DNA from: a virus
Taxonomy: Duplodnaviria; Caudoviricetes
Length of the DNA stretch: 26,157 bases
Virus record (IMG/VR): IMGVR_UViG_3300010398_000039
Coordinates: 1 to 26,157 of that record
Strand: one strand, 5' to 3'
The position numbers and the translations under genes were made by a program. This document shows, piece after piece, positions 3 through 14,299 of this stretch (positions within the stretch are counted from its first letter, which is position 1; each line of letters opens with the position of its first letter). The notes beneath the pieces are model-generated. The model did not search any database, was not told the origin of the DNA, and saw nothing but the letters and a program-made list of their open reading frames with translations.

Positions 3-1904
3 CGCCATGACTTGCGGCGGCACCGGCCCGGCGTTGACCTGATTCGACTGGATCGTGCCCAGCTTTTGAAAGATCAGCTCCTTCAGCTTCGACTGCACCT
101 CGGGGCTGTTCTTGATCTGCTGGAGCAGCGCCGAGCGCTCCACCTCGTCCGGGTTCGAGCCCATCTCGCGGCAGGCGTCTTCCCAGGTCATCAGGTGCAG
201 CGCCAGCTTCTCCTGAATGGCGCGCGTGGCCACCACGTCGTCGCTCGGCGTCTGGATGTCGAGATGCGCCTCGTAGCGGTGCACCCCCTTGAGGTCTTCC
301 GGCCCCAGACCCAGCCAGCCGGCCTTGGTCATGCCGCCGTAGCGGCGTGACGAGGCAGCATTCCGCGGCAGCTCCTCGGCCCAGGCATAAACGTCCTCGC
401 CGACGCGGTGCTCAATCAGCCAGGACTCGAAACCGGTGCGCGCGCCGAGCGCGGTCTGGGCGTTCTTGACGATCGGGTCCCACGCCAGGCGCGCCAGATA
501 CGCTGCTTGATTCATAGCGTATCCTGATTGACTCGAAGCTGTTAGGCCCTGAACCACCGACGGCAAGGCAAGGTTGACCAGATTGGTCGCGTTCTCGAGC
601 AGATCCTTCAAGTCCTGGCCGGCTCGCGGCTGCTCGACGGGGGCGATGTCATACGGGTAGACGGTGCCCGGCTCGATCTCGTCGCCACCGAAGCGCTCGC
701 CCCCGCCCACCCCGTAGGGCGAGCCCTCGCTCGGCGGCAAGCCCGGGATGGTGCCCGGCTGCTGGGTGCGCTTGAAGGCGGCGAAGCCGGTCATGTAGGC
801 GCTGTTACCCTGGATCGTGAGTAAAGAATCCAGCAACGGGAAGAGCTCGAGGAACGGGTACAGCACACCCTGGCCGGCGCGGTGGGGCAGGCGCGAGTCG
901 GTGGTGATGCCGAGCGCGTGGAAGTAAGGGCCCTTGAGCGAGCGCGTGTTCGGGTCGCCGAAACCGTGCTTCCACGAGCGCACCAGGGTGCCGTTGCCGA
1001 TCCGACCTGAGCCGCTCGACGACTGACCGGGGCCGACCAGGACCACGTTGCAGACCTCGTAGTCCCAGGCCTCGACGACGGTCAGGAAGGGCGAGCCCTT
1101 CATCATGCGGCCGTAGTCGCTCTTGGCCAGCTGCATGGCGCGCGGGTCCAGGTCCTGCCAATCCTGCGGGTCAGCCACCACCCCGCTGCGATCGAGGCCG
1201 GTGCCGAACCTGGCCAGCGCCTCGAGGTAGGGAACCTGCTTGACCTCGACGCAGGCCGTGAAGCCGTTCTCGTTCATCGAGTAGTAGAAGGTCTCGGGCG
1301 GGATGTCGGACGACGCGATCGGGTAGGGCAGCTTGAGCTTCAGCTCTTCCGTCTCGCGGTCGTAGATGCGGTCGGCCGCGTCCTGGTCGTACTCGCGCTG
1401 CAACTTGAGCTCGTCCTGCAGCATCGCCGCCTGGGTGTCGTATTCGGCCCAGGCCGTCGAGCAACGCGGAATCGTCTTGATGATCGCCTCGCCTTTCGTG
1501 GCCAGCGCGTACATGAAGAGACGGAGCAATTGCCGGTTGGCCTCGTGCTCCTGGCGCTTCCAGCTCGCCTCGAAGAAGTGCTCGCGCAGCGTGGCGTTCG
1601 CCTGGGCAACGTCGCCGAACTGGATCGGGCGGAACTGGATCGTCAGCGGATTGGTCGTCAGCGCCGCGGCGACGGTGTTGGCGATGTGCGGCGCCATCGG
1701 GCTATGAATTTCAAGAGCCGTCTTCCTATATGCTTCTGGAATATCTACGATTGTTTCCTGGTAGAGAACCGTGTCGATGAAGGCATATAATTGATCACGT
1801 TTCTTGAATTCCGACCTGAGTGAGTTGGCCAGGTCGATCGTCTCCCCGACGGCATCGGCGTCGTTGCCCGTTTCACCGGCGTGCATGTAGTTCAGGGTCG
1901 CCAT
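3..1904 (-). CDS. Probable portal protein (3' end runs off the window)
   Basis: Manual translation from ATG at 1904 (MATLNYMHAGETGNDADAVGETIDLANSLRSEFKKRDQLY...), overlapping the terL stop. The frame appears open to the window edge (>630 aa). The call rests on size and position directly after terL. Confidence 0.75.
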   Translation of the reverse strand, partial: MATLNYMHAGETGNDADAVGETIDLANSLRSEFKKRDQLYAFIDTVLYQETIVDIPEAYRKTALEIHSPMAPHIANTVAAALTTNPLTIQFRPIQFGDVAQANATLREHFFEASWKRQEHEANRQLLRLFMYALATKGEAIIKTIPRCSTAWAEYDTQAAMLQDELKLQREYDQDAADRIYDRETEELKLKLPYPIASSDIPPETFYYSMNENGFTACVEVKQVPYLEALARFGTGLDRSGVVADPQDWQDLDPRAMQLAKSDYGRMMKGSPFLTVVEAWDYEVCNVVLVGPGQSSSGSGRIGNGTLVRSWKHGFGDPNTRSLKGPYFHALGITTDSRLPHRAGQGVLYPFLELFPLLDSLLTIQGNSAYMTGFAAFKRTQQPGTIPGLPPSEGSPYGVGGGERFGGDEIEPGTVYPYDIAPVEQPRAGQDLKDLLENATNLVNLALPSVVQGLTASSQSGYAMNQAAYLARLAWDPIVKNAQTALGARTGFESWLIEHRVGEDVYAWAEELPRNAASSRRYGGMTKAGWLGLGPEDLKGVHRYEAHLDIQTPSDDVVATRAIQEKLALHLMTWEDACREMGSNPDEVERSALLQQIKNSPEVQSKLKELIFQKLGTIQSNQVNAGPVPPQVMA

Positions 1905-3232
1905 CGCATCCGTCCGCTGGAGGATCTACCCGACCTGAGCCCGTGGCCGATGGTCAGGCGGGTGGGCCGGGGCGCGGCGTGGGTGAAGGCGTACCAGGCC
2001 ATGGCCAGCGCCATGACCGTGTCGTCGTGGCCACCCTCGGGCGCCTCGTACCTGACCAGGCCAGACGGCAGCGCCTCGGACTGGTAGGCGAGCAGCTCGC
2101 CCTTCTGGGTGGCGTCGTCGAGCAGGGCGAGCTTCGAACGCTCCAGGGCCAACGAGAGCTCCTCGATCGCGGCCCGCTTCGAGGCGTTGGTGGTCGTGAA
2201 GGGATAGACCGGCAGACCGCGCCTGGCCAGATCCTGCACCAGGGGCATGCCGATGGAGTTGCTCTCGGGGATGATCGCGACCGGTCGGTAGCGCTCGACG
2301 AGGCCGTACAACCGCTCGAGCTGGAAGGCGTAGTCGATCCTGTTGAAACGGTCGAGCGCTACCTGCTCGAAGCTGCGCCCGTCCGAGCCGATGACGCTGA
2401 GCACGGTGAAGTCGGTGCTCAAGGCCCAGTCCACGCCAACGACGTAGTGCCAGCCGTCCTGATGGCGGGGCGCCGGTTCAGGCTTCAGTCGGCAGGCCTG
2501 CTCGAGCTTGCGGAAGACGCCCCCGCCGCCCTCGACGAACTGCGCCAGGATCTCCTGGTTGAAGGTGCGCTGGGTCATGGTCGCCCAGGCGCTCTCGATC
2601 TCGCCAAACTGGATGGTCGGGTTCTCGAGCGGGTGCGGAGATCGAACGAGGCCCCTGTCCGTGACGGCGCAGCCGAGCGTGGGCGCCTGCCAGGCGTTAC
2701 TCGAGTCCGCGCCGTTACCCGCGGCCAGCCACTCGCGCCAGAACCAGTTGAGACCCCTGGGTGAGCCGACGCACCAGGCCCAGCCGCCGGTGTCGATCAG
2801 CATCGGCCGCAGCACCTCGGGCCAGGCGTCGGGATGCACATCCCCGCTCTCGTCGATGACGATGCCGTCGGCGGTGTGGCCGCGGGCCGAGTCCGGGTTG
2901 TCGAGCGAGCGGAAGGTGATCAGCCCGCCGCTCGGGAACGTCGCCGTCATGAAGGTCTGGTTGAACTCGGCGATGGTGGCCGCGCCGTGCCTCAGCTCGG
3001 ACCAGCCGACCCGCACCTGATCGAACGTGGGAGCTCCCCACAGGATCCGCGAGCCCCTGACCGCGGCCTCGGCGGCAATGGCCATGACGAGCGTGGTTTT
3101 CCGCCAGCGTCGTCCAGCGGCCAGCCAGTTGAACCGCCGGGCCTCGGCGCGCACCGTGATCTGCCCCCGATGGGGCATGGGCAGTAAGAGCTGGCCGGTC
3201 TTAGCTGCCGACCTGAGCTTCGTCGTCGGCAC
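1892..3232 (-). CDS. terL: Terminase large subunit
   Basis: Walker A-like GRRWRKTT, Walker B IVIDE, motif III GSP, RNase H-like nuclease motifs VGVDWA..D and HDDTVMALAMA. Confidence 0.95.
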   Translation of the reverse strand: MPTTKLRSAAKTGQLLLPMPHRGQITVRAEARRFNWLAAGRRWRKTTLVMAIAAEAAVRGSRILWGAPTFDQVRVGWSELRHGAATIAEFNQTFMTATFPSGGLITFRSLDNPDSARGHTADGIVIDESGDVHPDAWPEVLRPMLIDTGGWAWCVGSPRGLNWFWREWLAAGNGADSSNAWQAPTLGCAVTDRGLVRSPHPLENPTIQFGEIESAWATMTQRTFNQEILAQFVEGGGGVFRKLEQACRLKPEPAPRHQDGWHYVVGVDWALSTDFTVLSVIGSDGRSFEQVALDRFNRIDYAFQLERLYGLVERYRPVAIIPESNSIGMPLVQDLARRGLPVYPFTTTNASKRAAIEELSLALERSKLALLDDATQKGELLAYQSEALPSGLVRYEAPEGGHDDTVMALAMAWYAFTHAAPRPTRLTIGHGLRSGRSSSGRMRWRP

Positions 3233-3632
3233 CGGTCCCGAGGTGCGTGGAGGGATCGCGAGGTGCGGGCTCTGTGTCGACGACGGCCGGGCGCCAGTCG
3301 TTGGTGTAGGTCACGCTCAGGTTCTCACCAGCGTTCAGGGTGACGGCGTCCCGCCACCTGGCCGGGTCCCGAGCTCGCAGAAGGGCGATCAGCAAGCGAT
3401 CAGACGGGATCTTGCCGCCGCAGGCCCGCTTCAGGGCGACCATCTCGAGGTAGTCGACGGCGTCCTTCTCGGCCTCGTGGTATCTGACCGTGAACTCGAC
3501 GTCGTGCTCGAGCCACGAGCTGAGCGTCGCGCGCGTCACCCCGGCGTGCTCCAGGGCCGGCCTGATCACGCCGCACTCGCGGAACACCTCGAGGAACGCC
3601 TCTTTGGCGATGCGTCGTTCGACCAGGTGCAT
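3201..3632 (-). CDS. terS: Terminase small subunit
   Basis: 143 aa directly upstream of terL; N-terminal HTH-like FLEVFRECGVIRPALEHAGVTRATLSSW and SDRLLIALLRARDP segment typical of small terminases. Confidence 0.8.
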   Translation of the reverse strand: MHLVERRIAKEAFLEVFRECGVIRPALEHAGVTRATLSSWLEHDVEFTVRYHEAEKDAVDYLEMVALKRACGGKIPSDRLLIALLRARDPARWRDAVTLNAGENLSVTYTNDWRPAVVDTEPAPRDPSTHLGTGADDEAQVGS

Positions 3633-4169
3633 CCGCGGCCTACCTCAATCTCATTTCTTCGTTTTTTCCGTATTTAGCGCCAACAGAGTCTTATGTCCCA
3701 TTACTGAGTTTTCTTGCGCGCGCCGCAATGGGCCAAACGCGTGATTCGGCGGCGTCGGGCGCGGCGCCCAACGGTGGGCAGGGTGCGTCATCACCGGCCA
3801 GCGCTCGAGTCGCGCGCGCGATCCTTGGGGCGCGCGTCGCGCGACCACACGAGCTCGGCCGAGCACATCCGTACTGCGCCGCATCGAGAATAGCTTTCGA
3901 TAATGGCAGTTGTCGCAAGCTGGCCGCGCGATCGGCTCAGCCGGCAATAGGCCCGCACGGCGGCAGTCTCGCAGTGTGCTCGGGTTATGTCAACCTGGCG
4001 CAGTAGGTGCCCGGCCGAACTGAGCCGGATTCGGTCCCGAACAGCGGCAAAGTGACAAGCCAGGGGGGAGAGTCCGGGGATGGACCAGGTAATGGTTTCA
4101 GTTATGTCAAGTGAGAATACCGACCATTGACACCAACCTCGCGCGCGGACCTTCCCCTCTCAAACACAT

Positions 4170-4183
4170 AGAACATGTGTACT
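4170..4183. promoter_or_regulatory. Degenerate LexA(SOS)-box-like site AGAAC-ATGT-GTACT
   Basis: One mismatch to AGAAC-N4-GTTCT; related copies at 9995 and 10041. Confidence 0.35.
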
Positions 4184-4196
4184 AATTTGAGATTGA

Positions 4197-4255
4197 CCAT
4201 TAGCACCATTAGCACCATTAGCACCACCATTGGCACCACCATTGGCACCATGGCA
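4197..4255 (+). repeat. Tandem iteron-like repeats CCATT(A/G)GCA
   Basis: CCATTAGCA x3 (4197-4223), CCATTGGCA at 4227 and 4239, CCATGGCA at 4248; followed by inverted repeat TTGCTAA-N6-TTAGCAA (4260-4279). Confidence 0.9.
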
Positions 4256-4308
4256 GATATTGCTAAAGAACGTTAGCAAAACCTCAACCTCCCGTTAGCA
4301 CACTATGC

Positions 4309-4327
4309 TTGATTCATCCTGTAAGCT
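4309..4327 (+). promoter_or_regulatory. Putative early promoter motif TTGA-N3-ATCCTG-TAAGCT
   Basis: Same motif at 6769-6787; ends in a -10-like TAN3T hexamer. Confidence 0.4.
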
Positions 4328-4394
4328 GTGGCCACACAAGCGAAACGAGAGGAGAACCGAACCAGAACGACTCAGTTCGAACCCACCAGACAGA

Positions 4395-4679
4395 ACGGCG
4401 CGAGCCACCGGTGAGAGCCCGGGAACAGAGCCCAACACTTGCGACAGCGCGGTGAGGCTCCGAGCAAGCAGGCAGCGAATAAGGGGATCGCCTTAGCAGG
4501 ATGGCCTACCGGCTCTACGCTGCGCGTCCCACCGGCCCACCATGGTCTAAGTGTTTCGGTATCTCACCCGGCTGCACAAGCGGGGAGTCCGGCGCCATGG
4601 CGGGTGATAGTGAGTGGGCTCCGTCGATACTTAGCAGCGCGCTACCCGGCAAGCCTGCACAAGCGCCCCGGCTCCGAAT
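4395..4679 (+). ncRNA. Candidate structured non-coding RNA / leader
   Basis: No credible ORF. Several nested complementary segments, e.g. 4547-4555/4626-4634, 4564-4570/4601-4607, 4518-4522/4635-4639, 4534-4540/4614-4620, and hairpin CCGG-TGAGAGC-CCGG near 4408-4422. Confidence 0.45.
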
Positions 4680-4777
4680 GGGGTGATATGGCGCTCTCGT
4701 GAGCCCGGCGATGTACCTACGGGGTGCACGCTACACGCAGTGAGAGCGGGTCAGTTCGATTCTGGCTCACCCCACCA
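4680..4777 (+). ncRNA. tRNA-like element (acceptor stem, T-arm, encoded CCA; no canonical D-arm)
   Basis: GGGGTGA (4680-4686) pairs with TCACCCC (4767-4773), followed by A-CCA; T-arm GTCAG-TTCGATT-CTGGC; long helix CGCTCTCG/TGAGAGCG in the anticodon-arm position. Confidence 0.7.
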
Positions 4778-4816
4778 TGCGGGATTGGTCCGTCTCGCAG
4801 CAGTTCAGTTCGGACC
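4778..4816 (+). ncRNA. H-type pseudoknot between the CCA end and the first RBS
   Basis: S1 TGCGGGA (4778-4784)/TCTCGCA (4793-4799); S2 GGTCCG (4787-4792)/CGGACC (4811-4816); loops of 2, 0 and 11 nt. Confidence 0.55.
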
Positions 4817-4831
4817 TACGGAGCTACCAAC

Positions 4832-5674
4832 GTGAATACTGCACTACGTGCCGCGATCGCCGGCCTTGACAGGCCTCTGGGTTTCCGCGAGCTACTGACG
4901 CCCGACGGATACAATCCCAAGCTGAAAAAAGGCCGCGCACGCGGTTACGCGAGCGCCATTCTGCACTTCGCACCGGCTGACCTGTCAGGCTATGACGTCT
5001 GCCAGTACCGTTCGGCCGGTTGCACCGCAGCCTGCCTGAATACGGCCGGCCATGGTGGAATCATCCGCAAGGGTCAAACCACCAACCCCGTGCAATTGGC
5101 GCGTATCGCCCGGACGGTGCTGTTCTTCGAACACCGCGCGATCTTCAATGATCTCCTGGTGGACGCGATCGAGCAGCATGTCCGGCGATCGATCAAGCGT
5201 GGGCTCACGCCGGTTGTGCGTCTCAATGGGACGTCCGACTTGCCATGGCACATGCTCAAGCTCAACGATGGACGCACGGTCATGGACACGTTTCCGACCG
5301 TGACGTTCTACGACTACACCAAGCATCCGCAGCGCGCTGCGCTCCGGACCTTGCCGGCCAATTACTCGCTGACGTTCAGCCGGAGCGAGACGAACGACGA
5401 CGACGTGCGCCGGATCCTGGCGCGCGGCGGGAACGTCGCGGTTGTCTTCGCGACCGGTCGCACCCGGCCATTGCCGCTCGTGTGGCACGGTTACCGCGTC
5501 ATCGACGCGGACAGGGATGATCTCCGGTTCCTGGATCCCAGGAACGTGGTGGTCGGACTCCGGGCCAAGGGTAAGGCCCGGGGTGAAGCTTCCGGGTTCG
5601 TCGAGGATCCGGACGCGGACACTGCCTGCTGGCCAATTGATCCCGAGCGGGATTGCATGGCGCACGCGGCCTGA
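4832..5674 (+). CDS. GP88-like phage protein (Cys-cluster, radical-SAM-like)
   Basis: C-x6-C-x3-C (CQYRSAGCTAAC), RLNGTSD, FYDYTK, YSLTFS and DDLRFLD motifs recognised from the phage gp88-like family; GTG start after GGAGCTACC. Confidence 0.75.
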   Translation: MNTALRAAIAGLDRPLGFRELLTPDGYNPKLKKGRARGYASAILHFAPADLSGYDVCQYRSAGCTAACLNTAGHGGIIRKGQTTNPVQLARIARTVLFFEHRAIFNDLLVDAIEQHVRRSIKRGLTPVVRLNGTSDLPWHMLKLNDGRTVMDTFPTVTFYDYTKHPQRAALRTLPANYSLTFSRSETNDDDVRRILARGGNVAVVFATGRTRPLPLVWHGYRVIDADRDDLRFLDPRNVVVGLRAKGKARGEASGFVEDPDADTACWPIDPERDCMAHAA

Positions 5675-5675
5675 T

Positions 5676-5734
5676 CGCAGAGTGGACCCGGCTCCGGCTG
5701 GGTCTAATGCGGCAGTCCCGGTCACAAGCCCGGG
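5676..5734 (+). ncRNA. Twister ribozyme, permuted (P5-type order), copy 1
   Basis: GCAGAGTG - P1 hairpin GACCCGGC-TCCG-GCTGGGTC - TAATGCGGC - CCCGG-TCACAAGC-CCGGG; predicted cut between 5705 and 5706. Confidence 0.88.
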
Positions 5735-5761
5735 CAATCTTCGTCGCAGAGGAGCTACCCC

Positions 5762-6772
5762 ATGACTATCGCTACGCAAGCCGGGTCCGTGTTCGCGGAT
5801 CCGAAGCGCTGGGAGTCTGCTATCACGCAGACACTGGTGCTGCGCGAGTCGCTCGGCCGCAAATTCGACGCGGTTGACGTCGCCGAACACCCGTGGATGC
5901 GCCTGGTCGCGTATCGCTATAGCGCCACCTATCGTGGCGACTTCGAGTACATGCTCAGTCAGCGAGATGCGCTCACGCGCTATCCCACGCAGACTGATCG
6001 CCAGGTCGCCGGCGTGCTGAATTGCGCCGTCCCCGATTGGCGCCGCTCAGCCCGGCCGGTGGCTGGTAGTAATCACCTGTTGCCCAACGTGACGGACGTC
6101 CCGTCATCGCGCTACCGGGTCGTTCAGCCGGATGGCAAGAGCCTGAGCGTGCGCCTCGACAGCGCCGCGTGGGCGAAGGATCGCCCGGAAGGCACGCGTG
6201 CCCTCTACTACCTCGGCCAGGGCGCCGAGTGGCAGTTCGCCGGCTTCATCGATCCGACCGGTGACATTCGCGTGATCGCGCGCGAACGGCACATGGTCAA
6301 GAGTCTCCACGCCGCGCTCACCGTGCTAACCGAGAGCGTGCCGGAGGGTCGCTGGTTGGTCCACGCGCTCGCGTTCAGCCTGGAAGGCAGCGTGTGCTGC
6401 TTCTGCGGGCGCGAGCTCGATACGGCCGAGTCCATCAGCGTGGGCTATGGCCCGGTCTGTGCTGACAAGCACGGCCTGCCGTGGGGTGAGGTCGCGGAAC
6501 CGGCGAGCGTCGTGCTCGCCCGGGACGCGATCGCGCACGGTGGCATCGACGCCGAGCCAGAGCCGGAGGAGACTCCGGCCCGCGTGCCTCAGGCCGGTGA
6601 CGGCTTGCGCGCGCACGATGTCGGCGTGTTCGAGAGCGGCGCCGCCATCATCGCGAAGACCGGTGGCGTGTCCTCGAGATTCGCGGACGTCGTGCGCGAG
6701 GTAACCGGTCGCGAGCCGGCGCCCCGCTGGCGCCCCGGCCGCACCTACGAGGAGATTTTCGGAGACGATTGA
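5762..6772 (+). CDS. DUF6011-like zinc-binding domain protein
   Basis: CCFCGRELDTAESISVGYGPVCA motif; RBS GGAGCTACC. Confidence 0.75.
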   Translation: MTIATQAGSVFADPKRWESAITQTLVLRESLGRKFDAVDVAEHPWMRLVAYRYSATYRGDFEYMLSQRDALTRYPTQTDRQVAGVLNCAVPDWRRSARPVAGSNHLLPNVTDVPSSRYRVVQPDGKSLSVRLDSAAWAKDRPEGTRALYYLGQGAEWQFAGFIDPTGDIRVIARERHMVKSLHAALTVLTESVPEGRWLVHALAFSLEGSVCCFCGRELDTAESISVGYGPVCADKHGLPWGEVAEPASVVLARDAIAHGGIDAEPEPEETPARVPQAGDGLRAHDVGVFESGAAIIAKTGGVSSRFADVVREVTGREPAPRWRPGRTYEEIFGDD

Positions 6773-6787
6773 CGGATCCTGTATAGT
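6769..6787 (+). promoter_or_regulatory. Putative promoter motif TTGA-N3-ATCCTG-TATAGT
   Basis: Matches the 4309-4327 motif; intergenic, upstream of an RBS. Confidence 0.45.
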
Positions 6788-6807
6788 CCATCACGCAAGG
6801 AGCTACC

Positions 6808-7029
6808 ATGCCACGCATCTATGCGCGCAACAACGACCCGCTCGACTTCTGCCGAGCACACATGCCGACCCGCGACGTCGCCGAGGTTCTCTACGGCGGC
6901 GCGATCGTCGGTGACGGCCCGGACGGCCGTGGCGACTACTACGACTACGACGCAGAGCACCCCAATTACGATTGGGACACTGTCTATTGCGAGCGCTGCG
7001 ACGTCCTGTTGGGCGAGCGCGACAACTAG
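6808..7029 (+). CDS. Hypothetical protein (73 aa)
   Basis: ORF with AAGGAGCTACC RBS; CxxC near C-terminus. Confidence 0.75.
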   Translation: MPRIYARNNDPLDFCRAHMPTRDVAEVLYGGAIVGDGPDGRGDYYDYDAEHPNYDWDTVYCERCDVLLGERDN

Positions 7030-7093
7030 CGCAGAGCACCCCTCCGGCTCAGCCCGGAGGGCGTAATGCGGCAGGCCGGTTGCAAGCCCGGCC
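7030..7093 (+). ncRNA. Twister ribozyme, permuted, copy 2
   Basis: GCAGAGCA - P1 hairpin CCCTCCGG/CCGGAGGG - TAATGCGGC - GGCCGG-TTGCAAGC-CCGGCC; predicted cut between 7064 and 7065. Confidence 0.88.
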
Positions 7094-7120
7094 AATTCTT
7101 CAGCCGCAGAGGAGCTACCA

Positions 7121-7318
7121 ATGGCAGCAACACTTCTGGATGGCAAGTTCGTCTACGAGACGCGCGTCACGCCATCCAACGACAAGCCGTCGAGCCGGGT
7201 GGTGATCACTCTGGATCTCAATCACCCGGAGCTTCGTTTGCTGATCGACCGCGCGCGCCGTTCGAAGGGGCAGCGTGCCGTCGAGGCGGGCGGTGCGCTC
7301 GTGGTGCGGGTCTCGTGA
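7121..7318 (+). CDS. Hypothetical protein (65 aa)
   Basis: ATG after AGGAGCTACC; high GC3 codon usage. Confidence 0.75.
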   Translation: MAATLLDGKFVYETRVTPSNDKPSSRVVITLDLNHPELRLLIDRARRSKGQRAVEAGGALVVRVS

Positions 7319-7518
7319 TCCGCACCGACCTGGCCACGATCCGCAATCTCGGCCTAATGGCGTTCAACCTGTCCTACGCAGACTTCCGCTGGCATCTTGG
7401 CCTGGACGACGACGACTACGCGCGCGGCAAGTACGAGGCACTCAAAAACCTCGGCCGCGCCATGGCGCCGTTCAGCGACGCCACGCTGTACCGCCTGGTT
7501 GAGGCGTACCGATCATGA
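7315..7518 (+). CDS. Hypothetical protein
   Basis: GTGA start/stop overlap with the previous gene; 3' part of track ORF 7066..7518. Confidence 0.6.
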   Translation: MIRTDLATIRNLGLMAFNLSYADFRWHLGLDDDDYARGKYEALKNLGRAMAPFSDATLYRLVEAYRS

Positions 7519-7895
7519 AAACCGCCGAGCTTCGCTTCGTCTGGTTCGACGATCGCGACCTGAACACCGTCATGCGCGCCTGGGGGCGCGAGCATGGTTA
7601 CGCCGGCGCCAAGGGCGGCTGGATCTACCACGCGAGTGGCCAATCCGTCTGCCAGGGCTGGTGGAGCCTCTGGAATCAGAGCCGCCAGTCAGTCCTCGAC
7701 TGGCTCACGCGCCGTAACACCGGCTTCGACACGTTCGACGAGCTCGTCGACACGCACACCGACTACCGGCCGACGATCCAGCCGCGCAACGCGGAGACGC
7801 GCAGCCTGGCGGCAGCGTACGACCAGATTCAGAAGCAGCGTGGCGACGCGCGCCGCGCCTACACCTACTACCAGCCCGGCCGCGTCCAGGCGTAA
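7515..7895 (+). CDS. Hypothetical protein (126 aa)
   Basis: ATGA overlap, GAGG RBS, typical codon usage. Confidence 0.75.
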   Translation: MKTAELRFVWFDDRDLNTVMRAWGREHGYAGAKGGWIYHASGQSVCQGWWSLWNQSRQSVLDWLTRRNTGFDTFDELVDTHTDYRPTIQPRNAETRSLAAAYDQIQKQRGDARRAYTYYQPGRVQA

Positions 7896-7905
7896 GGAGC
7901 TACCC

Positions 7906-8244
7906 ATGCGAGACAAGTTGGAGATTGCCGCCGACATCCTCAACGAGATCGACGGCAACGATCAGGTTGACATTGCCCAGCAGTACGTCGCGGACGCGCT
8001 TGCCGAGCTACAACCCGCGAAGGTCTACGTGGTGCTGTTCCACGACGTGTGGGACAACGGCAACGACCCGGGCGTCGAGAACGAGAACGGCGAACCGGAG
8101 ACCACCAGCATCGAGCGTATCTTCGCCCATCGCGCGGCAGCCGAGGATCTGGTGGCGTCATTCAAGGCGCCCGACTTCAACCTCAAGGCGTCCCACTCCT
8201 TCTTCACGATCGAGGAGTGGGCCCTCGACGATAGCGCAGAGTGA
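7906..8244 (+). CDS. Hypothetical protein (small acidic phage protein)
   Basis: ATG after AAGGAGCTACC (MRDKLEIAAD...); 3' part of track ORF 7594..8244. Confidence 0.75.
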   Translation: MRDKLEIAADILNEIDGNDQVDIAQQYVADALAELQPAKVYVVLFHDVWDNGNDPGVENENGEPETTSIERIFAHRAAAEDLVASFKAPDFNLKASHSFFTIEEWALDDSAE

Positions 8245-8302
8245 CCGGATCGGGGGCCCTCCCCCTCCGGGCTAATGCGGCGGACCGGTCACAAGCCCGG
8301 TC
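8235..8302 (+). ncRNA. Twister ribozyme, permuted, copy 3 (overlaps upstream stop codon)
   Basis: GCAGAGTG - P1 hairpin CCGGA..GGGGG-CCCT-CCCCC..TCCGG - TAATGCGGC - GACCGG-TCACAAGC-CCGGTC; predicted cut between 8273 and 8274. Confidence 0.85.
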
Positions 8303-8327
8303 AATTCACACCGCAGAGGAGCTACCA

Positions 8328-8540
8328 GTGAGTAGTCAAGCACTTGAGCACTTCGTGCTCTACGACTCGGATGCCAATCCGATCAGTTCGCATCTCGCCG
8401 ACGAGGGCGAGTGCACCGTCACCTGGCTGGGCGAAGCCGTGCTCGATCACGCCAGGCTCAGTCCCGAGCCGCTGCGCCTGGTGCGCGAGATGATCAGCCC
8501 GGACAACGTCGAGTGGTATCGCGGACCGGAGGCCAGCTGA
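8328..8540 (+). CDS. Hypothetical protein
   Basis: GTG after AGGAGCTACC; 3' part of track ORF 8241..8540. Confidence 0.7.
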   Translation: MSSQALEHFVLYDSDANPISSHLADEGECTVTWLGEAVLDHARLSPEPLRLVREMISPDNVEWYRGPEAS

Positions 8541-8812
8541 TGGCCTCCTTCGCCTTCTTCCGCCAGGTCGGTAGTGCCGGCTCGGTAACCGACCTCGTGG
8601 TGAACGTCGATCACGTCATCACGGTCAACCCCAGCATGCTGCGCGAGCGCTCGGTGCTCGTCCTGGCCGGGTCCGAGATAGGCATCGAGGTTCGCGGCGA
8701 CCTGACTCAGGTCGTCGAGACGCTGCGCGCCGCCGTCGATAGTGGTGGCCTGCGCGTGCTGCGCTCGATGGACGCCAGCCTGGCCAAGATGGCCGAGGAA
8801 ACGAGCTACTGA
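8540..8812 (+). CDS. Hypothetical protein
   Basis: TGATG overlap, GGAGG RBS (MASFAFFRQ...). Confidence 0.7.
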   Translation: MASFAFFRQVGSAGSVTDLVVNVDHVITVNPSMLRERSVLVLAGSEIGIEVRGDLTQVVETLRAAVDSGGLRVLRSMDASLAKMAEETSY

Positions 8813-9165
8813 TGGGCCGCGCGATCAGCCGCAGCGGGAGTGAGCCCTTCGCGGCTCACGTCTCCTGCTCGCGCCCCAAGTGCGACCAGCAGCAGGTGCT
8901 CGACGTCGAGCTCGATCAGGCGCTCTTCGAGGAGGTGCATAGGCGCAACCTGTACCTGCTGTCGAAAGAGGAGCGCGACGCGATGGACACGCTGCGTGAC
9001 ATGCAGTTCACGCTGATGTACCAGGCGCCGACCCCGGGTGGCTGGATCAAGCTGACCGAGCCGAACCTCGATCACCCGAGTCAGGCACGCGCCGCGCGCG
9101 AGTTCTGCTCCTGGCGCTGCGTGCGCCTGTTCGCGACCGGTCGCGAGAACGGGAAGGACGTCTGA
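8812..9165 (+). CDS. Hypothetical Cys-containing protein
   Basis: TGATG overlap; CxxxxC and FCSWRC motifs. Confidence 0.7.
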   Translation: MGRAISRSGSEPFAAHVSCSRPKCDQQQVLDVELDQALFEEVHRRNLYLLSKEERDAMDTLRDMQFTLMYQAPTPGGWIKLTEPNLDHPSQARAAREFCSWRCVRLFATGRENGKDV

Positions 9166-9329
9166 TGCCGATCACGGCTGACACGATCTCCGGGCTCACG
9201 CCGCCCCGGTGTATTGCCTGTGGCCAGCCGCTGAGCCAGCTTGAGTGGGCGATGGCCAGCGCGTCGAGGCATGGCCAGCCGGCCCACGCCCGCTGCCTGC
9301 TGCGCCTGCGCGCGCGGAGGCTGCTATGA
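9165..9329 (+). CDS. Small putative zinc-finger protein (54 aa)
   Basis: Manual translation; CIAC...HARC; start and stop overlap both neighbours. Confidence 0.55.
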   Translation: MPITADTISGLTPPRCIACGQPLSQLEWAMASASRHGQPAHARCLLRLRARRLL

Positions 9330-9451
9330 GTGTCGGCGACGCATGGGGGCTGATCATCTGCTTCAGCGTCGCTTTCTGGATCATCGGCGCCTACATGGGA
9401 CTGCTGACCGAGAAAGGGAAACATCGTGACTGCAACTGCAACTGTGGCTAA
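9326..9451 (+). CDS. Small membrane protein
   Basis: GGAGG RBS, ATGA overlap, one hydrophobic helix (WGLIICFSVAFWIIGAYMGLL). Confidence 0.55.
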   Translation: MSVGDAWGLIICFSVAFWIIGAYMGLLTEKGKHRDCNCNCG

Positions 9452-9701
9452 GAACCCGGCCGGCGCGCGCTTCGTCGGCGCGCGCGAGCTCCTGGGCCTG
9501 ACCCAGACAGAGCTCGGTTTCCGGCTCGGTGTCCACTACACGACGGTCGCGCGTTGGGAGACGAGCGAAGCTGGCCCGCCGCTGATGGCTCAGTGGGCGA
9601 TGGTCGGGCTGCTGCTCGAATCCGACCTGAAGCCTGCCGCTGCCCACCGGTTCGCAGACCGGATCGGGCAGCGGCTCGAGGTGACTGATGACGATGCCTG
9701 A
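9426..9701 (+). CDS. XRE-family helix-turn-helix regulator
   Basis: ARELLGLTQTELGFRLGVHYTTVARWE. Confidence 0.88.
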   Translation: MTATATVAKNPAGARFVGARELLGLTQTELGFRLGVHYTTVARWETSEAGPPLMAQWAMVGLLLESDLKPAAAHRFADRIGQRLEVTDDDA

Positions 9702-9996
9702 TTTCGGCGAGCCTCAGATCTTCTTCCTATCGCTCACAACGCCCGAGGGCAAGCCCTACACCGGTCGCCTTACGGGCTGGCAAGTCTTCGACGGCAGACC
9801 TAGCCATCATGGCCATCACACGCTCTACAAGACCGTGGATGGCCGCTATCTCCTGTATGGCAAGTCGTCGGAAGCGCCGCGCGATATCACCGGCAACATC
9901 ACGTCCAGCCGGTATGGCCTTGATCAGTGGTTTGAACGCGACGAAGTGGTCGCGATCCGAGAAATTCTCGGGCTCGAATCGGTTATCGATCTTTAG
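9688..9996 (+). CDS. Hypothetical protein
   Basis: GAGGTG RBS; last gene of the plus-strand operon. Confidence 0.65.
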   Translation: MTMPDFGEPQIFFLSLTTPEGKPYTGRLTGWQVFDGRPSHHGHHTLYKTVDGRYLLYGKSSEAPRDITGNITSSRYGLDQWFERDEVVAIREILGLESVIDL

Positions 9997-10008
9997 AACA
10001 TATGTTCT
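9995..10008. promoter_or_regulatory. Perfect LexA(SOS)-box-like palindrome AGAAC-ATAT-GTTCT
   Basis: Exact match to the GAAC-N4-GTTC box of Gram-positive-type/Chloroflexota LexA. Confidence 0.5.
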
Positions 10009-10045
10009 GGTGCTAATGCTCGTTTTCGAGCATTAGCACCAGAAC
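10004..10045. repeat. 19-bp perfect inverted repeat containing CATTAGCACC (origin element and/or terminator between convergent operons)
   Basis: GTTCTGGTGCTAATGCTCG-TTTT-CGAGCATTAGCACCAGAAC; another GGTGCTAATG near 10100. Confidence 0.85.
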
Positions 10046-10116
10046 GTGTGTCCTAATTTTGATCTCAGACCCCCCTGTGGTGAGTAATTTGGTGCAAGTG
10101 GTGCTAATGCCTATTT

Positions 10117-12477
10117 TCAGCTACCTCTGGCGGGTGGGTAGACCCAGATCTTGGCCTGTCCACCGGTGCCCTCGCGCCTGACCACGCGCTCGCCGCCGTA
10201 GTTCGCGGCGTAGGCACTCATGACGGCGTTAAACAGCTTCGCATCGCGGCAGACGATGCGCCGCCGCCGGAGCTCGTGCTGCTGGATGCGGCCCTCGCCG
10301 TGGCGCAGCGCTTCGAGCGCCGGGATGAGCTTGGTCAGCACGAGCTTGTTGGCCTGGGTGTCCTGTTGCGTCACCCCGGCCACGTCTTCCTCGCCCAGCG
10401 CGTGCCAGCAACGGACGCTGAAGCGCACGATCGCGCCGGCGGCTTCGACGATCCAAGCAGGAATCTCGCCGCCTCGGCCCGGGCTCTCGAACTCGGCCAG
10501 GACAAGCGCGACGCGCGACAGATGAACCGAGCCGCGCAGGAAGATCGCGCGCACTGTATCGCTCTGGCCGGGCAAGTAAGCCTCGGCGCGCCAGAGCTTG
10601 AGGATCTTGTCGAACATCTTGCGTGTCTCGTTTTCTGGATCCTTGGGGATGAGCCAGACACGTCGCTGGGCGCGTAGATCGAGCAGCTGCTTGATGCGCT
10701 CGTTCCATTCGAACGGAACGCCGTCGTCGCGCTCGACTATGTCCGGGCCCGGGTCACGCGCCAGGAAGGGCAGCCAGCGCGAGCGCATGCCGTCGCCATG
10801 GGCTGGGCCGAGCAGGTGTTGGTTCGTTGGCACGAGCCCACCCAGGACTGGCACGGTCGGCTTCTCGATGTAGAGCGCGATCTTGTTCCGAGGACTACGA
10901 CCGTCACCGCGTCGCCGGTAGGTCATCGGCCGGTCAGCGCTGAACAGATCGAGGAACACGCTACGGTCGAACGATAAGCCACTGTGGCTGTACTGCCCAA
11001 AGCTTTCGAGCAGCTTGCTTAGCTCACCGGTAACGATCGCCAGGGCAGCCGAGCCAGTCTCGTCCTGCATCTGACCCAGGTCGGCCATGAGTGCCGGTAC
11101 GGTGCCCGGATCAGCAATGAGCGGCATCGGCAGCGTCGGCGATTGCAACCCCTGGTCACGCTGGTAATGCCGATCGAGCACCTCGGCCGCTCGTCTGATT
11201 GCGCCATTCTTGCCGCGCGCAGCTTCAACGATGAGTGGAATCCAGAGCACGGCGCGCTCGGCCCGGCCGGCGTCGAGTTCGACGCAACTTTCGCTGCCGA
11301 TGGCGGCGCAGGCGACGCCGAGCCCGGCGCCGATACTCAACGTTGGATCCAGACTCGTGGTCGACGCCAGCTTGCCCCAGAGCGGGCTGAGTACGTCGAT
11401 CGGAAACTCCGGGATCTCCGGCAGCGGCTCTGGCTCGACGTCCTCGATCTCGTCGGGGATCTCGCGCGTGACGCGGTGGTGACCATTGCGTCGCTGCCCA
11501 AGCCTCGGGCTGCTGTCTGGCCGGTAGTCTTTCGAGTCGCCGAAATCAGCTGGCCACCAGGGTGAGCCCTCGCCGTGATGTAATGCGTCCTCGAGCGCGC
11601 GCTCGGTGGCTTCCTCACCGTCGCCACCGTCGCGCGGCGACATGGTCAGCCCGTTGACGTCGCACGCCGCGAGCAGCGACTGACGCGCGTTCTGCGCGTC
11701 CAGTAGGCCATTGGCCACGAGTCCGCCAGCTGCCTCGGCGACCTGCATGAGCCGCGCCCGGCGCGAGCCCGGCACCTGCTCGCTCAGTTCGTTCACCCAC
11801 TTGGCCAGCATGCCGGCCGCGCGCCGATCCTCGAAACGACCGGGCGTCGTGCTGCCGGTCCGCTCTTTTTTCTTCTTTTCCCGCACCGGCGGAAGCTCGC
11901 GCCAGTCGAGCGCGTCGCCCTCCTGGGCGAAGAAGCGGCGCGAGCTCGCGCCGCACGTCAGCCACATCATGCGCGAGCTGTCTTTCGTCGCCGGATCGAG
12001 CCAGCCCTTCAGCAGCTGGTTCACGCGCGCCCAGGCCTCGTTGTAGTCGGCGCCCGGAATCGGCGACACCAGCCGGACCAACACGCGCCAGCGCAGCGCG
12101 TCGGGTTTCGAGTTGAACGTCTCGACGAGGAAGACGTCGTAACCACGCAGCCGATCGAGGACGTCCTCCGCGGTCACCCCGATGTCGACGTCGAGGATCA
12201 GCACGCTCACCTCGACGACGTTCTCCTGCTTGCGCTGGGGTGGGTCGAACATCGCCGGCGACATCAGCCCGACCTCCTGGTTACGCGCCTCTTTCGTCGC
12301 CGCGGGGCGCGTTTTCGCCCAGCCATCCTTCAGCTGCTGCCAGGTAAAAGTGCGAACGACGGGCTTCGTGTCGTGGACATTCCGGAACAAACTGACGTGC
12401 AGGGAATCTTGCGCTGGTGTAGGCTGCACCGCAGCAGACTCCTGTTCTGGTGTCTCGGGTCTGTCACAGGCAGCCAA
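10117..12477 (-). CDS. Primase-like replication protein with C-terminal DUF3987-like domain
   Basis: N-terminal LILDVD ... RWRVLVRL ... DPATKDSSRM primase-polymerase-like motifs; C-terminal segments (LWIPLI..RGKN, ELSKLL, LGGLVP, DGMRSRWL) resembling DUF3987/YfjI. Confidence 0.7.
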   Translation of the reverse strand: MAACDRPETPEQESAAVQPTPAQDSLHVSLFRNVHDTKPVVRTFTWQQLKDGWAKTRPAATKEARNQEVGLMSPAMFDPPQRKQENVVEVSVLILDVDIGVTAEDVLDRLRGYDVFLVETFNSKPDALRWRVLVRLVSPIPGADYNEAWARVNQLLKGWLDPATKDSSRMMWLTCGASSRRFFAQEGDALDWRELPPVREKKKKERTGSTTPGRFEDRRAAGMLAKWVNELSEQVPGSRRARLMQVAEAAGGLVANGLLDAQNARQSLLAACDVNGLTMSPRDGGDGEEATERALEDALHHGEGSPWWPADFGDSKDYRPDSSPRLGQRRNGHHRVTREIPDEIEDVEPEPLPEIPEFPIDVLSPLWGKLASTTSLDPTLSIGAGLGVACAAIGSESCVELDAGRAERAVLWIPLIVEAARGKNGAIRRAAEVLDRHYQRDQGLQSPTLPMPLIADPGTVPALMADLGQMQDETGSAALAIVTGELSKLLESFGQYSHSGLSFDRSVFLDLFSADRPMTYRRRGDGRSPRNKIALYIEKPTVPVLGGLVPTNQHLLGPAHGDGMRSRWLPFLARDPGPDIVERDDGVPFEWNERIKQLLDLRAQRRVWLIPKDPENETRKMFDKILKLWRAEAYLPGQSDTVRAIFLRGSVHLSRVALVLAEFESPGRGGEIPAWIVEAAGAIVRFSVRCWHALGEEDVAGVTQQDTQANKLVLTKLIPALEALRHGEGRIQQHELRRRRIVCRDAKLFNAVMSAYAANYGGERVVRREGTGGQAKIWVYPPARGS

Positions 12478-12553
12478 GAGCGCCGCCTGGCCCGGCTGAC
12501 GGTTCGGGGTAAGGCGGTGCTGGCTGACCTGTTTGATTCCCGGAGGAGCCAGG

Positions 12554-14299
12554 TTACTCCTGCGGCGCGACCTCCCGCACGGGCGGGCGCGTCACACGTC
12601 GCAGCGCCCGCCGCGCGAACTCGTTGTCGAGCGCGTCCGAGGCCTCGCGCTTGGTCGCCGCCGGCGGCAGCTTGAACTTGGTCAGCAGTTCGACCTGACG
12701 CTCGCTCGGCGCGTCGTCACGCTTCCGCCAGCGCGCCTTGGCGTCGAGCAGGTAGGGCGGCTTCAGGTCGCGCGCGATGTCGCCGGCGACGCCGAGCGCG
12801 TAGCCGTGGTCCAGGCCCTCGCCGAGGATCTCGACGCCGTAGCTGTCGACGAAGCCGGCGAAGTTGATGTGCGGGTGCAGGCGCAGCGCGCGGTAGGTTG
12901 CGCCGGTGCGCTCGACGAGCACCCAGCCCTGCGGCTGGAGCGTCGTCTCGTTCTTGCCCAGGTCGATCATGAACACGCCAGATTCCGGCTTCGCCCACTT
13001 GAGCGGCGCCCGTGCCAGCATGTCGACCTCGCGCGCCTCGGCCTCCTGGCCGACCAGGACGCGTGTTTTTCTCTTCTTCTCCTCCTTGAGCAGCATCTCC
13101 AGGTCGCCGAGCATGCCGAGCTCGCCGGTCAGATCCTCGTCGCTGATGTCGACGGCGTGACCGACCTCCTCCTCAAGCTCGCGGCCGATCAGCGACGCGG
13201 CCGTCTCGAGCCGCTTGTGGTCGCTGTTGCCGACCATGTCGAGGACCAGGCAGTGCTCCTTGTCGGGGTAGGGCCGGAGGCCTCGGCCGATGATCTGCTG
13301 GTAGAGCGCCCGACTCTGCGTCGGCCGAGCCATGACGATGCAGTCGACACTCGGCTCGTCCCAGCCCTCGGTCAGCACGCCGACCGAACTGATCGCGTCG
13401 AGCTTGCCGTCGGCCAGCGCCCGATAGATCCGGCGGCGCTCGTCGGGTGGCGTCTCGCCGATCACCAGTTCGCAGCTGAAGCCCTGCTCGCGCACGGCGC
13501 CCATGGTTGCCACCGCGACGTCGACAATCGGCGTGAAGATCGCCGAGCGTCGACCGCGGGCGTGCTCGGCCATGCCCTCGGCGATGTAGCGGTGGGCGTT
13601 GGCCTCGATCATGGCCTCGCCGAGCGACTTGTCGGTGAAGTCACCGTCGCTCTTGCGCACCTCGGCCAGGTTGATCGGCATGGTCACGCGCAGCGCCTTC
13701 AGGTCGGTCAGGTAGCCCTGCTTGATCAGGCTGAGCATCTTGATCTGGAAGGCGATCGACTGGAACGTGCCGGTGCCGTCGCTCTTGCCCAGGCCCTGGC
13801 CGTCCATCCGATCAGAAGTGGCGGTGCAGCCGAACAGCAGCGGGCCGTCTGGCTGGTCGGCGCGCAGCGCCTGGAGCACCAGCTGATAGGTCGCGGCCGG
13901 CGCGTGGTGCGCCTCGTCGATCCAGATCAGCCCGTAGTTGAAGCGCATCAGCTGCTCGAGCCGGTTCTCGCGCCAGATCGTCTGGATCGAGGCGATTGTG
14001 TGGCGCTTGCCGAGCTCGTTGCGCTCAGCTTTGACCACGCCGATGTCGTCACGCGCGACGCCGAGGAAGCCGAGCTTCTCGATCGTCTGCGTGACGAGCT
14101 CGTCGCGGTGGACGATCGTCAGCGTGCCCGTCTTGCGCTTGAAGTCGCGCAGCACAGTGCCGCAGACGATCGTCTTGCCGGCGCCGGTCGGGCTGACCAG
14201 GAGTGTGCGGTTGCCGGCGACGAGCTCGCGCTTGATCGCCTCGACGGACGCGACCTGATAGTCGCGCAGATGTACAGTTGGGGCCGGAGTTGTGGTCAC
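12554..14299 (-). CDS. Superfamily 2 DEAD/DEAH-box helicase
   Basis: LRDYQ, PTGAGKT, DEAHH, TAT, LTEGWD, QIIGRGLR. Confidence 0.96.
   Translation of the reverse strand: MTTTPAPTVHLRDYQVASVEAIKRELVAGNRTLLVSPTGAGKTIVCGTVLRDFKRKTGTLTIVHRDELVTQTIEKLGFLGVARDDIGVVKAERNELGKRHTIASIQTIWRENRLEQLMRFNYGLIWIDEAHHAPAATYQLVLQALRADQPDGPLLFGCTATSDRMDGQGLGKSDGTGTFQSIAFQIKMLSLIKQGYLTDLKALRVTMPINLAEVRKSDGDFTDKSLGEAMIEANAHRYIAEGMAEHARGRRSAIFTPIVDVAVATMGAVREQGFSCELVIGETPPDERRRIYRALADGKLDAISSVGVLTEGWDEPSVDCIVMARPTQSRALYQQIIGRGLRPYPDKEHCLVLDMVGNSDHKRLETAASLIGRELEEEVGHAVDISDEDLTGELGMLGDLEMLLKEEKKRKTRVLVGQEAEAREVDMLARAPLKWAKPESGVFMIDLGKNETTLQPQGWVLVERTGATYRALRLHPHINFAGFVDSYGVEILGEGLDHGYALGVAGDIARDLKPPYLLDAKARWRKRDDAPSERQVELLTKFKLPPAATKREASDALDNEFARRALRRVTRPPVREVAPQE

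Follow-up and report, generated by a model that had tools for sequence, protein, structure and literature searches.

What would a tailed phage gain from self-cleaving RNA between the genes of one operon, and what would become of the message after the cut? These questions are raised by three small elements on the plus strand of IMG/VR record IMGVR_UViG_3300010398_000039, positions 1 to 26,157, a tailed-phage fragment of 26,157 nt with 65% G+C that is referred to, at its full length, as the window. A sequence-only reading had taken these elements for permuted twister ribozymes by which an early polycistronic messenger RNA (mRNA) cuts itself into units. By every feature that can be tested in the sequence they are members of the Rfam family Twister-P5 (RF02684), for which self-cleavage is predicted, and in all three copies a second P2 strand, CGCA, lies between the ribozyme and the ribosome-binding site (RBS) of the next gene.

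Three type-P5 twisters at gene junctions

The twister class was reportedly introduced by Roth et al. in 2014. The ribozyme has been reviewed (PMC5408937). A comparison of the whole window with Rfam (cmscan) gave exactly three matches, all to Twister-P5 and all over the full model (1-58), at 5676-5733 (E 8.6e-12), 7030-7091 (E 4.3e-07) and 8235-8300 (E 1.3e-06). Their scores lie above the gathering threshold of 37.6 bits, and no further Rfam ribozyme was detected in 3000-12600 at E<=10. The elements are:

5676..5734, plus strand: twister type-P5 copy 1 (65.6 bits), 1 nt past the stop codon of the GP88-family gene; predicted cut 5705/5706; 5680 is the conserved G that follows P2
7030..7092, plus strand: twister type-P5 copy 2 (47.2 bits), abutting the TAG at 7027-7029; predicted cut 7064/7065; 7034 is the conserved G that follows P2; T1 variant GCA/UGC
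8235..8301, plus strand: twister type-P5 copy 3 (45.4 bits), overlapping the last codons and the TGA (8242-8244) of the open reading frame (ORF) 7906-8244; predicted cut 8273/8274; 8239 is the conserved G that follows P2

Besides the full-length match, the likeness to type P5 comprises the stems P1, P2 (4 bp) and P4, the pseudoknots T1 (3 bp) and T2 (2 bp), which are complementary in all three copies, and the U^A site. The conserved L1/L4 nucleotides, including the A past the cut and the G after P2, match the Rfam consensus in each copy. The permuted order P2'-L1-P1-U^A-P2-T2-P4 has its termini at the P5 position, P5 is the best match within the clan, and a P5 stem is absent throughout, as the sequence-only reading had observed. 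The exchange of pseudoknot partners that it had described was likewise borne out: T1 consists of GUG/CAC in copies 1 and 3 and of GCA/UGC in copy 2, which amounts to two compensatory pairs. The first pair of the P4 extension changes in a compensatory manner (C-G, G-C and A-U in copies 1, 2 and 3), and P1 varies in sequence and length yet pairs in all copies, imperfectly beside the cut in copy 3. When the three window copies, which share 35-42 nt at 86% identity, are aligned with 17 hand-picked relatives, 98.9% of the core pair cells are standard pairs, and changes on both sides are seen in two of three T1 pairs, one of two T2 pairs and three of five P4 pairs. The conserved L1/L4 nucleotides are invariant among these 20 copies, in part through the construction of the search pattern, and P2 is invariant partly because that pattern fixed it. 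The fold z-scores of the whole precursors (-1.8, -1.2 and -0.6 for copies 1-3) are unremarkable, as expected of pseudoknotted RNA.

Copies 1 and 2 begin 1 and 0 nt past in-frame stop codons and occupy spacers, as had been claimed. This description fails for copy 3, where the stop codon of the upstream ORF falls inside the ribozyme and the TAG preceding it (8232-8234) is out of frame. The three cuts named earlier coincide with the predicted U^A positions, and the distances from cut to start codon of 56, 56 and 54 nt (copies 1, 2 and 3) agree with the former estimate of about 55 nt. Thus, the identity, cut sites and distances on which the idea of a self-cutting polycistron was built hold up; processing itself, which we infer, is the best reading of the locus, and the label "early operon" would follow from gene layout.

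A second P2 strand downstream of P4

The word CGCAGAG, part of the ribozyme core, recurs at 5745, 7105 and 8312, a repetition that the sequence-only reading had not mentioned. Its CGCA lies 10-13 nt past P4, directly before the Shine-Dalgarno sequence (SD), and is embedded in longer complements of the strand that would lie at the 5' end after cleavage:

5743..5748, plus strand: GUCGCA, the spare P2 strand of copy 1, able to pair with UGCGGC at 5708-5713 through a helix that includes one G-U pair; paired in the centroid fold of the 3' product
7103..7108, plus strand: spare P2 strand of copy 2, GCCGCA, a perfect 6-bp complement of UGCGGC; pairing probability 1.0
8311..8315, plus strand: spare P2 strand of copy 3, CCGCA, a 5-bp complement of UGCGG; pairing probability 0.99
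5749..5764, plus strand: ribosome-binding motif GAGGAGCTACC together with the DUF6011 start codon, read from the sequence; the motif recurs at 7109 and 8316

Folding of the precursors, with pseudoknots unscored, predicts the native P2 to be favoured or equal, by 3.4, 1.8 and 0 kcal/mol in copies 1-3, and folding of the 3' products predicts the spare helix to be favoured by 1.8, 4.4 and 4.4 kcal/mol. The 58-column RF02684 model stops at P4, and the downstream strand lies outside it. No account of such a strand was found in the literature searched; Roth 2014 and Weinberg 2015 with their supplements fell outside that search and could contain one. The possibility that the downstream CGCAGAG serves as the P2 strand of an active type-P1 twister was rejected: the T1 pairing with L4 fails, GGA having two mismatches to CAC and one central mismatch to UGC. 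Elsewhere (L026, L089, L159, L161 and L168), GCAGAG occurs on both sides of the twister core, which can then be read as type P1; these forms are possible permutation intermediates.

The layout of the window copies recurs in about 160 IMG/VR stretches matched by a core pattern, 120 of which were fetched, and the same pattern is found in 76 GTDB stretches from Bacillota, Acidobacteriota, Dehalococcoidia and others. Arrays of five to six Rfam matches are present in L006, L018, L044, L055 and L058 among 20 chosen loci that were scanned. Of 56 non-redundant viral copies, window copies included, 26 follow the upstream stop at a distance of 0-1 nt, 7 contain it (as TGA), and for 10 no ORF was found; in the GTDB set, which has shorter flanks, just 3 of 24 lie at 0-1 nt. 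A large Acidobacteriota subfamily of P5 twisters (L188, L194, L197, L198 and related loci) has no abutting upstream ORF by the filter used, and other ribozymes are seen near P5 twisters, one HDV-like (L033, 5599-5667) and one a type II hammerhead (L204, 1029-1090). The cultured Acidobacteriota phage Tunturi_4 (L381, PP885687.1) contains four unannotated P5 twisters, at 2843, 3766, 6001 and 7583, which start 0, 0, 4 and 25 nt past stop codons; one has a compensatory T2 change (A-U). In three of the four, CGCAUU directly after P4 is the complement of the first six bases of the product.

Among phages with a full flank the closest is L384, which has in common with the window a terL about 70% identical, the portal, five operon homologues and the GGAGCTACC motif. 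Its homologous operon contains, on the minus strand at 5845-7330, three type II hammerheads, each reaching from a stop codon to an RBS, at junctions different from those of the window twisters and with pseudoknots between loop I and the 3' tail (UGGUC with GACCA). No CGCA precedes the RBSs behind these three hammerheads. This relative emerged from terminase loci of which 7 of 44 were covered by the Rfam scan. That so close a relative has hammerheads in place of twisters shows that it is the cleavage itself that selection favours, and the presence of hammerheads in the same operon lends support to polycistron processing.

For a statistical assessment, 134 viral matches were reduced to 58 non-redundant copies, 53 of them of the CGCA/UGCG type and 49 of these with a recognisable start. 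CGCA is present in 27 of the 49 spacers versus 6.2+-2.2 in dinucleotide shuffles, none of 300 shuffles reaching this number, and is the most enriched 4-mer, ahead of GGAG. It precedes 24 of 46 twister-led starts versus 42 of 430 ribozyme-free starts of those loci (p 4e-11) and, under a strict intergenic filter, 14 of 22 twister-led versus 14 of 151 ribozyme-free starts (p 4e-8). Behind hammerheads, the count is 2 of 45 starts, drawn from 123 matches before de-replication and start filter and from sequences of lower G+C. A second, independent viral set was obtained with another P4 pattern. Its 43 matches, after removal of four loci on contigs that had already been sampled, came down to 19 non-redundant copies, of which 15 are of the usual type; CGCA is present in 6 of these 15 spacers versus 1.9+-1.3 expected, with 9 of 2000 shuffles as high. 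Conservation is limited to the four pairing bases: their distance to P4 varies between 2 and 31 nt, and the bases behind them are mixed. The word falls in hairpin loops in L006. An explanation of CGCA as part of the phage's RBS or as a generic word before it is ruled out by the ribozyme-free starts, the hammerhead-led starts and the starts of L384. The second P2 strand is thus shown statistically to be a solid and twister-specific feature of about half of the phage P5 twisters; no covariation of it with P2 was detected.

A possible fate of the cut message, and alternatives

The reading towards which we lean, with modest confidence, is that twisters at gene junctions cut the transcript and that the spare CGCA then re-pairs with the freed 5' end and shields the downstream piece from decay. 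The starting point is given by Rfam-grade twisters with intact cores at stop codons, 54-56 nt before the next starts. Cleavage in cis, during or soon after transcription, would leave a 2',3'-cyclic phosphate and a 5'-OH, as is known from the chemistry of the family (PMC5408937, PMC6765202). In the P5 permutation the upstream piece would end in the P1 hairpin and carry away the P2 partner strand, which would leave the first eight bases of the downstream piece unpaired. About half of the phage P5 twisters supply this piece with a P2 strand of its own. Once the upstream piece leaves, possibly aided by a ribosome that terminates at the neighbouring stop, as the geometry suggests, UGCG(GC) is predicted to pair with the spare strand. 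Such re-pairing would fold the 5' end into a P2+P4 structure that leaves no more than two bases free, and it would hinder rejoining; its purpose may be that the mRNA units are stable and translated separately. A naked 5'-OH end would admit RNase J-type decay. Since RNase J1 degrades the 5'-OH product of glmS and 5' hairpins stabilise mRNA (PMC3997798), the spare strand would have a reason. Type II hammerheads without such a strand fit this reading as well, because their products start inside a stem by design. Product folding, the RNase J1 precedent and the contrast with hammerheads thus favour re-pairing and protection.

Several observations weigh against it. The spare helix of copy 1 has a pairing probability of just 0.04 when 15 nt of the ORF are included, and across the family only 25 of 41 carriers exceed 0.5. 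About half of the viral copies have no spare strand at all, related phages are non-independent samples even after de-replication, which inflates the counts, and CGCA also stands before the SD of the ribozyme-free start at 6808. The signal is weak in cellular genomes (8 of 28 versus 4.1+-1.8, p 0.04), where CGCA is outside the top ten 4-mers of 16 spacers. Searches for UGCA-type variants yielded 2 viral and 40 metagenome stretches, and by eye two such lineages (L028/L144/L160 and L174) had a matching strand before de-replication; however, a matching TGC[AT] is found in one of five de-replicated UGCA-type copies versus 12 of 90 of the usual type (p 0.53), so that covariation between the spare strand and P2 is not detected, and L146 and L221 retain CGCA despite a UGCA core. 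A consensus promoter scan of 3500-10300 found none, which makes a single long transcript an assumption, no RNA run was listed among sequencing runs that hold the sequence, and terminase-based searches gave no clear host to which RNases could be assigned. Finally, an engineered twister that cut a 5' untranslated region in E. coli left mRNA stability unchanged (Felletti 2016; PMC5052635).

Alternatively, the spare strand may compete with the native one before cleavage. A terminating ribosome would melt the native P2, the spare strand would capture UGCG(GC), and cleavage would depend on translation, or cleavage would free the SD. Phage P5 twisters would then be two-state modules in which upstream translation decides on cutting or on how the 5' end and RBS of the next gene are presented, that is, a natural ribosome-gated ribozyme switch. 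The tight adjacency of stop codons and ribozymes suits this model, as do the spare helices of the window, which comprise 5-6 bp and cover T2 bases. In uncut RNA the spare helix of copy 3 ties with or beats native P2, and the SD of copy 2 is predicted to change from 0.05 to 0.71 unpaired upon cleavage. However, copy 1 moves the opposite way, and a general release of the SD was rejected, as its accessibility does not change family-wide (41 carriers, p 0.89). Nor are the spare strand and stop adjacency associated (15 of 33 versus 20 of 41, p 0.82). The native P2 is transcribed earlier and gains two pseudoknots besides, and the hammerheads of L384, which lack such a strand, likewise begin at stop codons. 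The missing association and the missing general change in SD access weaken the model, which we consider unlikely.

Cleavage might instead act as a decay trigger or timer, so that early messages are shorter-lived or the genes behind the cut become uncoupled. The precedent is glmS (PMC3997798), and the absence of a spare strand from roughly half of the phage P5 twisters would agree with it. Against it stand the strong RBS and the P4 hairpin behind every window copy, and the selected sequence would close the 5' end; moreover, a ligand-binding add-on is not evident. This makes a glmS-like role improbable. Similarly doubtful is the view that the ribozymes cut while the downstream CGCA is a relic, at the P2 position of type P1, of the duplication behind the P5 permutation. 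Tandem duplication has been proposed as a route to circular permutation (PMC10085705), the window copies repeat seven bases (CGCAGAG), forms ambiguous between P1 and P5 exist, and the covariation test of the spare strand was null. A relic would have to account, however, for the retention of only the four pairing bases amid mixed following positions, variable spacing and unalignable flanks, and the SDs of the window copies begin with this same GAG, which would mismatch T1. Very unlikely, finally, is a ribozyme-RBS module that is mainly a recombination cassette for shuffling small accessory genes, with cleavage being secondary: the similarity of the window copies, the different junctions used in L384, the occurrence of an ORF 7515 homologue in twister loci and 16 GP88-bearing loci without an Rfam match would agree with it, but catalytic residues and pseudoknots are retained via compensatory change, for which DNA homology has no need, and in L384 the same role is taken by an unrelated ribozyme class.

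Operon layout and known systems

The twisters lie in a run of plus-strand genes (4832-9996) that codes for GP88, DUF6011, small ORFs of unknown function and a helix-turn-helix (HTH) gene. According to Pfam/PHROG scans this run is situated between the small and large terminase subunits (3201-3632 and 1892-3232, minus strand) and the primase and helicase (10117-14299, minus strand):

4832..5674, plus strand: GP88-family gene upstream of copy 1 (Pfam PF17338, E 2.6e-40; phrog_1617)
5762..6772, plus strand: DUF6011 gene, first behind copy 1 (PF19474, E 7.8e-11)
6808..7029, plus strand: 73-aa ORF that ends at copy 2; its homologue in L384 is 69% identical
7121..8244, plus strand: four small ORFs between copies 2 and 3 (7121-7318, 7315-7518, 7515-7895 and 7906-8244), Pfam/PHROG scans
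8328..9996, plus strand: run of overlapping small ORFs downstream of copy 3, one of them (9426-9701) an HTH_3 regulator, Pfam/PHROG scans

The Pfam scan assigned none of the four small ORFs to a family, and the one before copy 3 (7906-8244) had no match in the Pfam/PHROG scan. A homologue of the ORF at 7515 is present in the twister-bearing loci L003 and L020. A tie between the ribozyme and GP88 was rejected: 16 of 22 GP88 loci were scanned, with no Rfam match in any. Besides the ribozyme-led genes, the ribozyme-free starts at 4832, 6808 and 7906 are preceded by GGAGCTAC. The three cuts would split the transcript into one unit of two genes (5762 and 6808), one of four (7121-8244) and one of about seven (8328-9996); the predicted units are not all single-gene.

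A possible internal -10 box, TATAGT, was missed by the promoter scan after the DUF6011 gene (6760-6800, plus strand). The matching junction of L384 has a stretch that looks promoter-like by eye, and a site matching 10 of 12 promoter positions lies ahead of the DUF6011 gene of that phage. Direct repeats of the CATTAGCACC type flank the operon in inverted arrangement (4160-4252 and 9993-10110), beside a 30-bp hairpin (9993-10056) at the downstream flank, and blocks corresponding to the upstream one occur in L382 and L383; repeats and hairpin are possible origin, packaging or terminator elements. The long non-coding leader (4560-4680, plus strand) contains CTGCACAAGCG twice, folds no better than shuffled sequences (z 0.9) and has no Rfam match. 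It is followed by a tRNA look-alike (4680-4777, plus strand), 54 nt ahead of the GP88 start, that resembles the tRNA-like domain of tmRNA. This element has an encoded ACCA end, a 7-bp acceptor stem without G3-U70, no D stem, a T arm with the loop UUCGAUU and, where a tRNA has its anticodon arm, a long closed stem. Its fold z-score is -2.9, its match to the Rfam tRNA-Sec model reaches just 23 bits, ARAGORN calls no tRNA there, and relatives were found neither by one viral pattern scan nor among the fetched loci. It could be an additional cutting mark.

The early mRNA of phage T7 is cut by RNase III between genes, which leaves structured ends; the process needs a host protein and yields 5'-phosphate ends. 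RiboJ is an engineered hammerhead insulator that consists of a ribozyme and a hairpin ahead of the RBS. The window resembles the former in the predicted cuts among putatively early genes with structured ends and the latter in the hairpin before the RBS. Neither the ribozyme-punctuated phage operon nor the proposal that twisters process polycistrons is new, and the three copies are ordinary family members. Clustered type II hammerheads around prophage genes cleave in transcripts of about 2 kb and in E. coli (Perreault 2011; PMC3088659); as in the window, several ribozymes lie on the coding strand between small genes of a phage operon, and operon- or gene-length mRNAs were proposed as the outcome. 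L384 has exactly this arrangement. Weinberg 2019 (PMC6765202) names polycistron processing and a phage association for hammerhead and twister and leaves the purpose open, and ribozyme classes have been described as interchangeable near phage genes (Eckert 2023; PMC10085705).

Added here are the twister-specific second P2 strand, a close relative in which another ribozyme class has taken the place of twister, and a cultured phage for tests: Tunturi_4, with its four copies, is a system in which the module can be studied during infection. The type II hammerhead and the twisters of the window differ in what the cut leaves behind. The 3' product of the former begins inside stem I, and its tail pseudoknot belongs to the active fold; the product of the latter would lose its partner strand, and the spare strand lies outside the active fold. 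If functional, this strand would indicate that what becomes of the cut product is under selection and would separate processing and protection from cutting and destruction; the ribozyme and its spare strand could also serve as a natural insulator part. The glmS ribozyme is alike in self-cleaving upstream of an RBS and in leaving mRNA with a 5'-OH, but it needs a ligand and triggers decay (PMC3997798, citing Collins 2007), whereas the window twisters have no evident ligand site and the end of their product is predicted to be closed.

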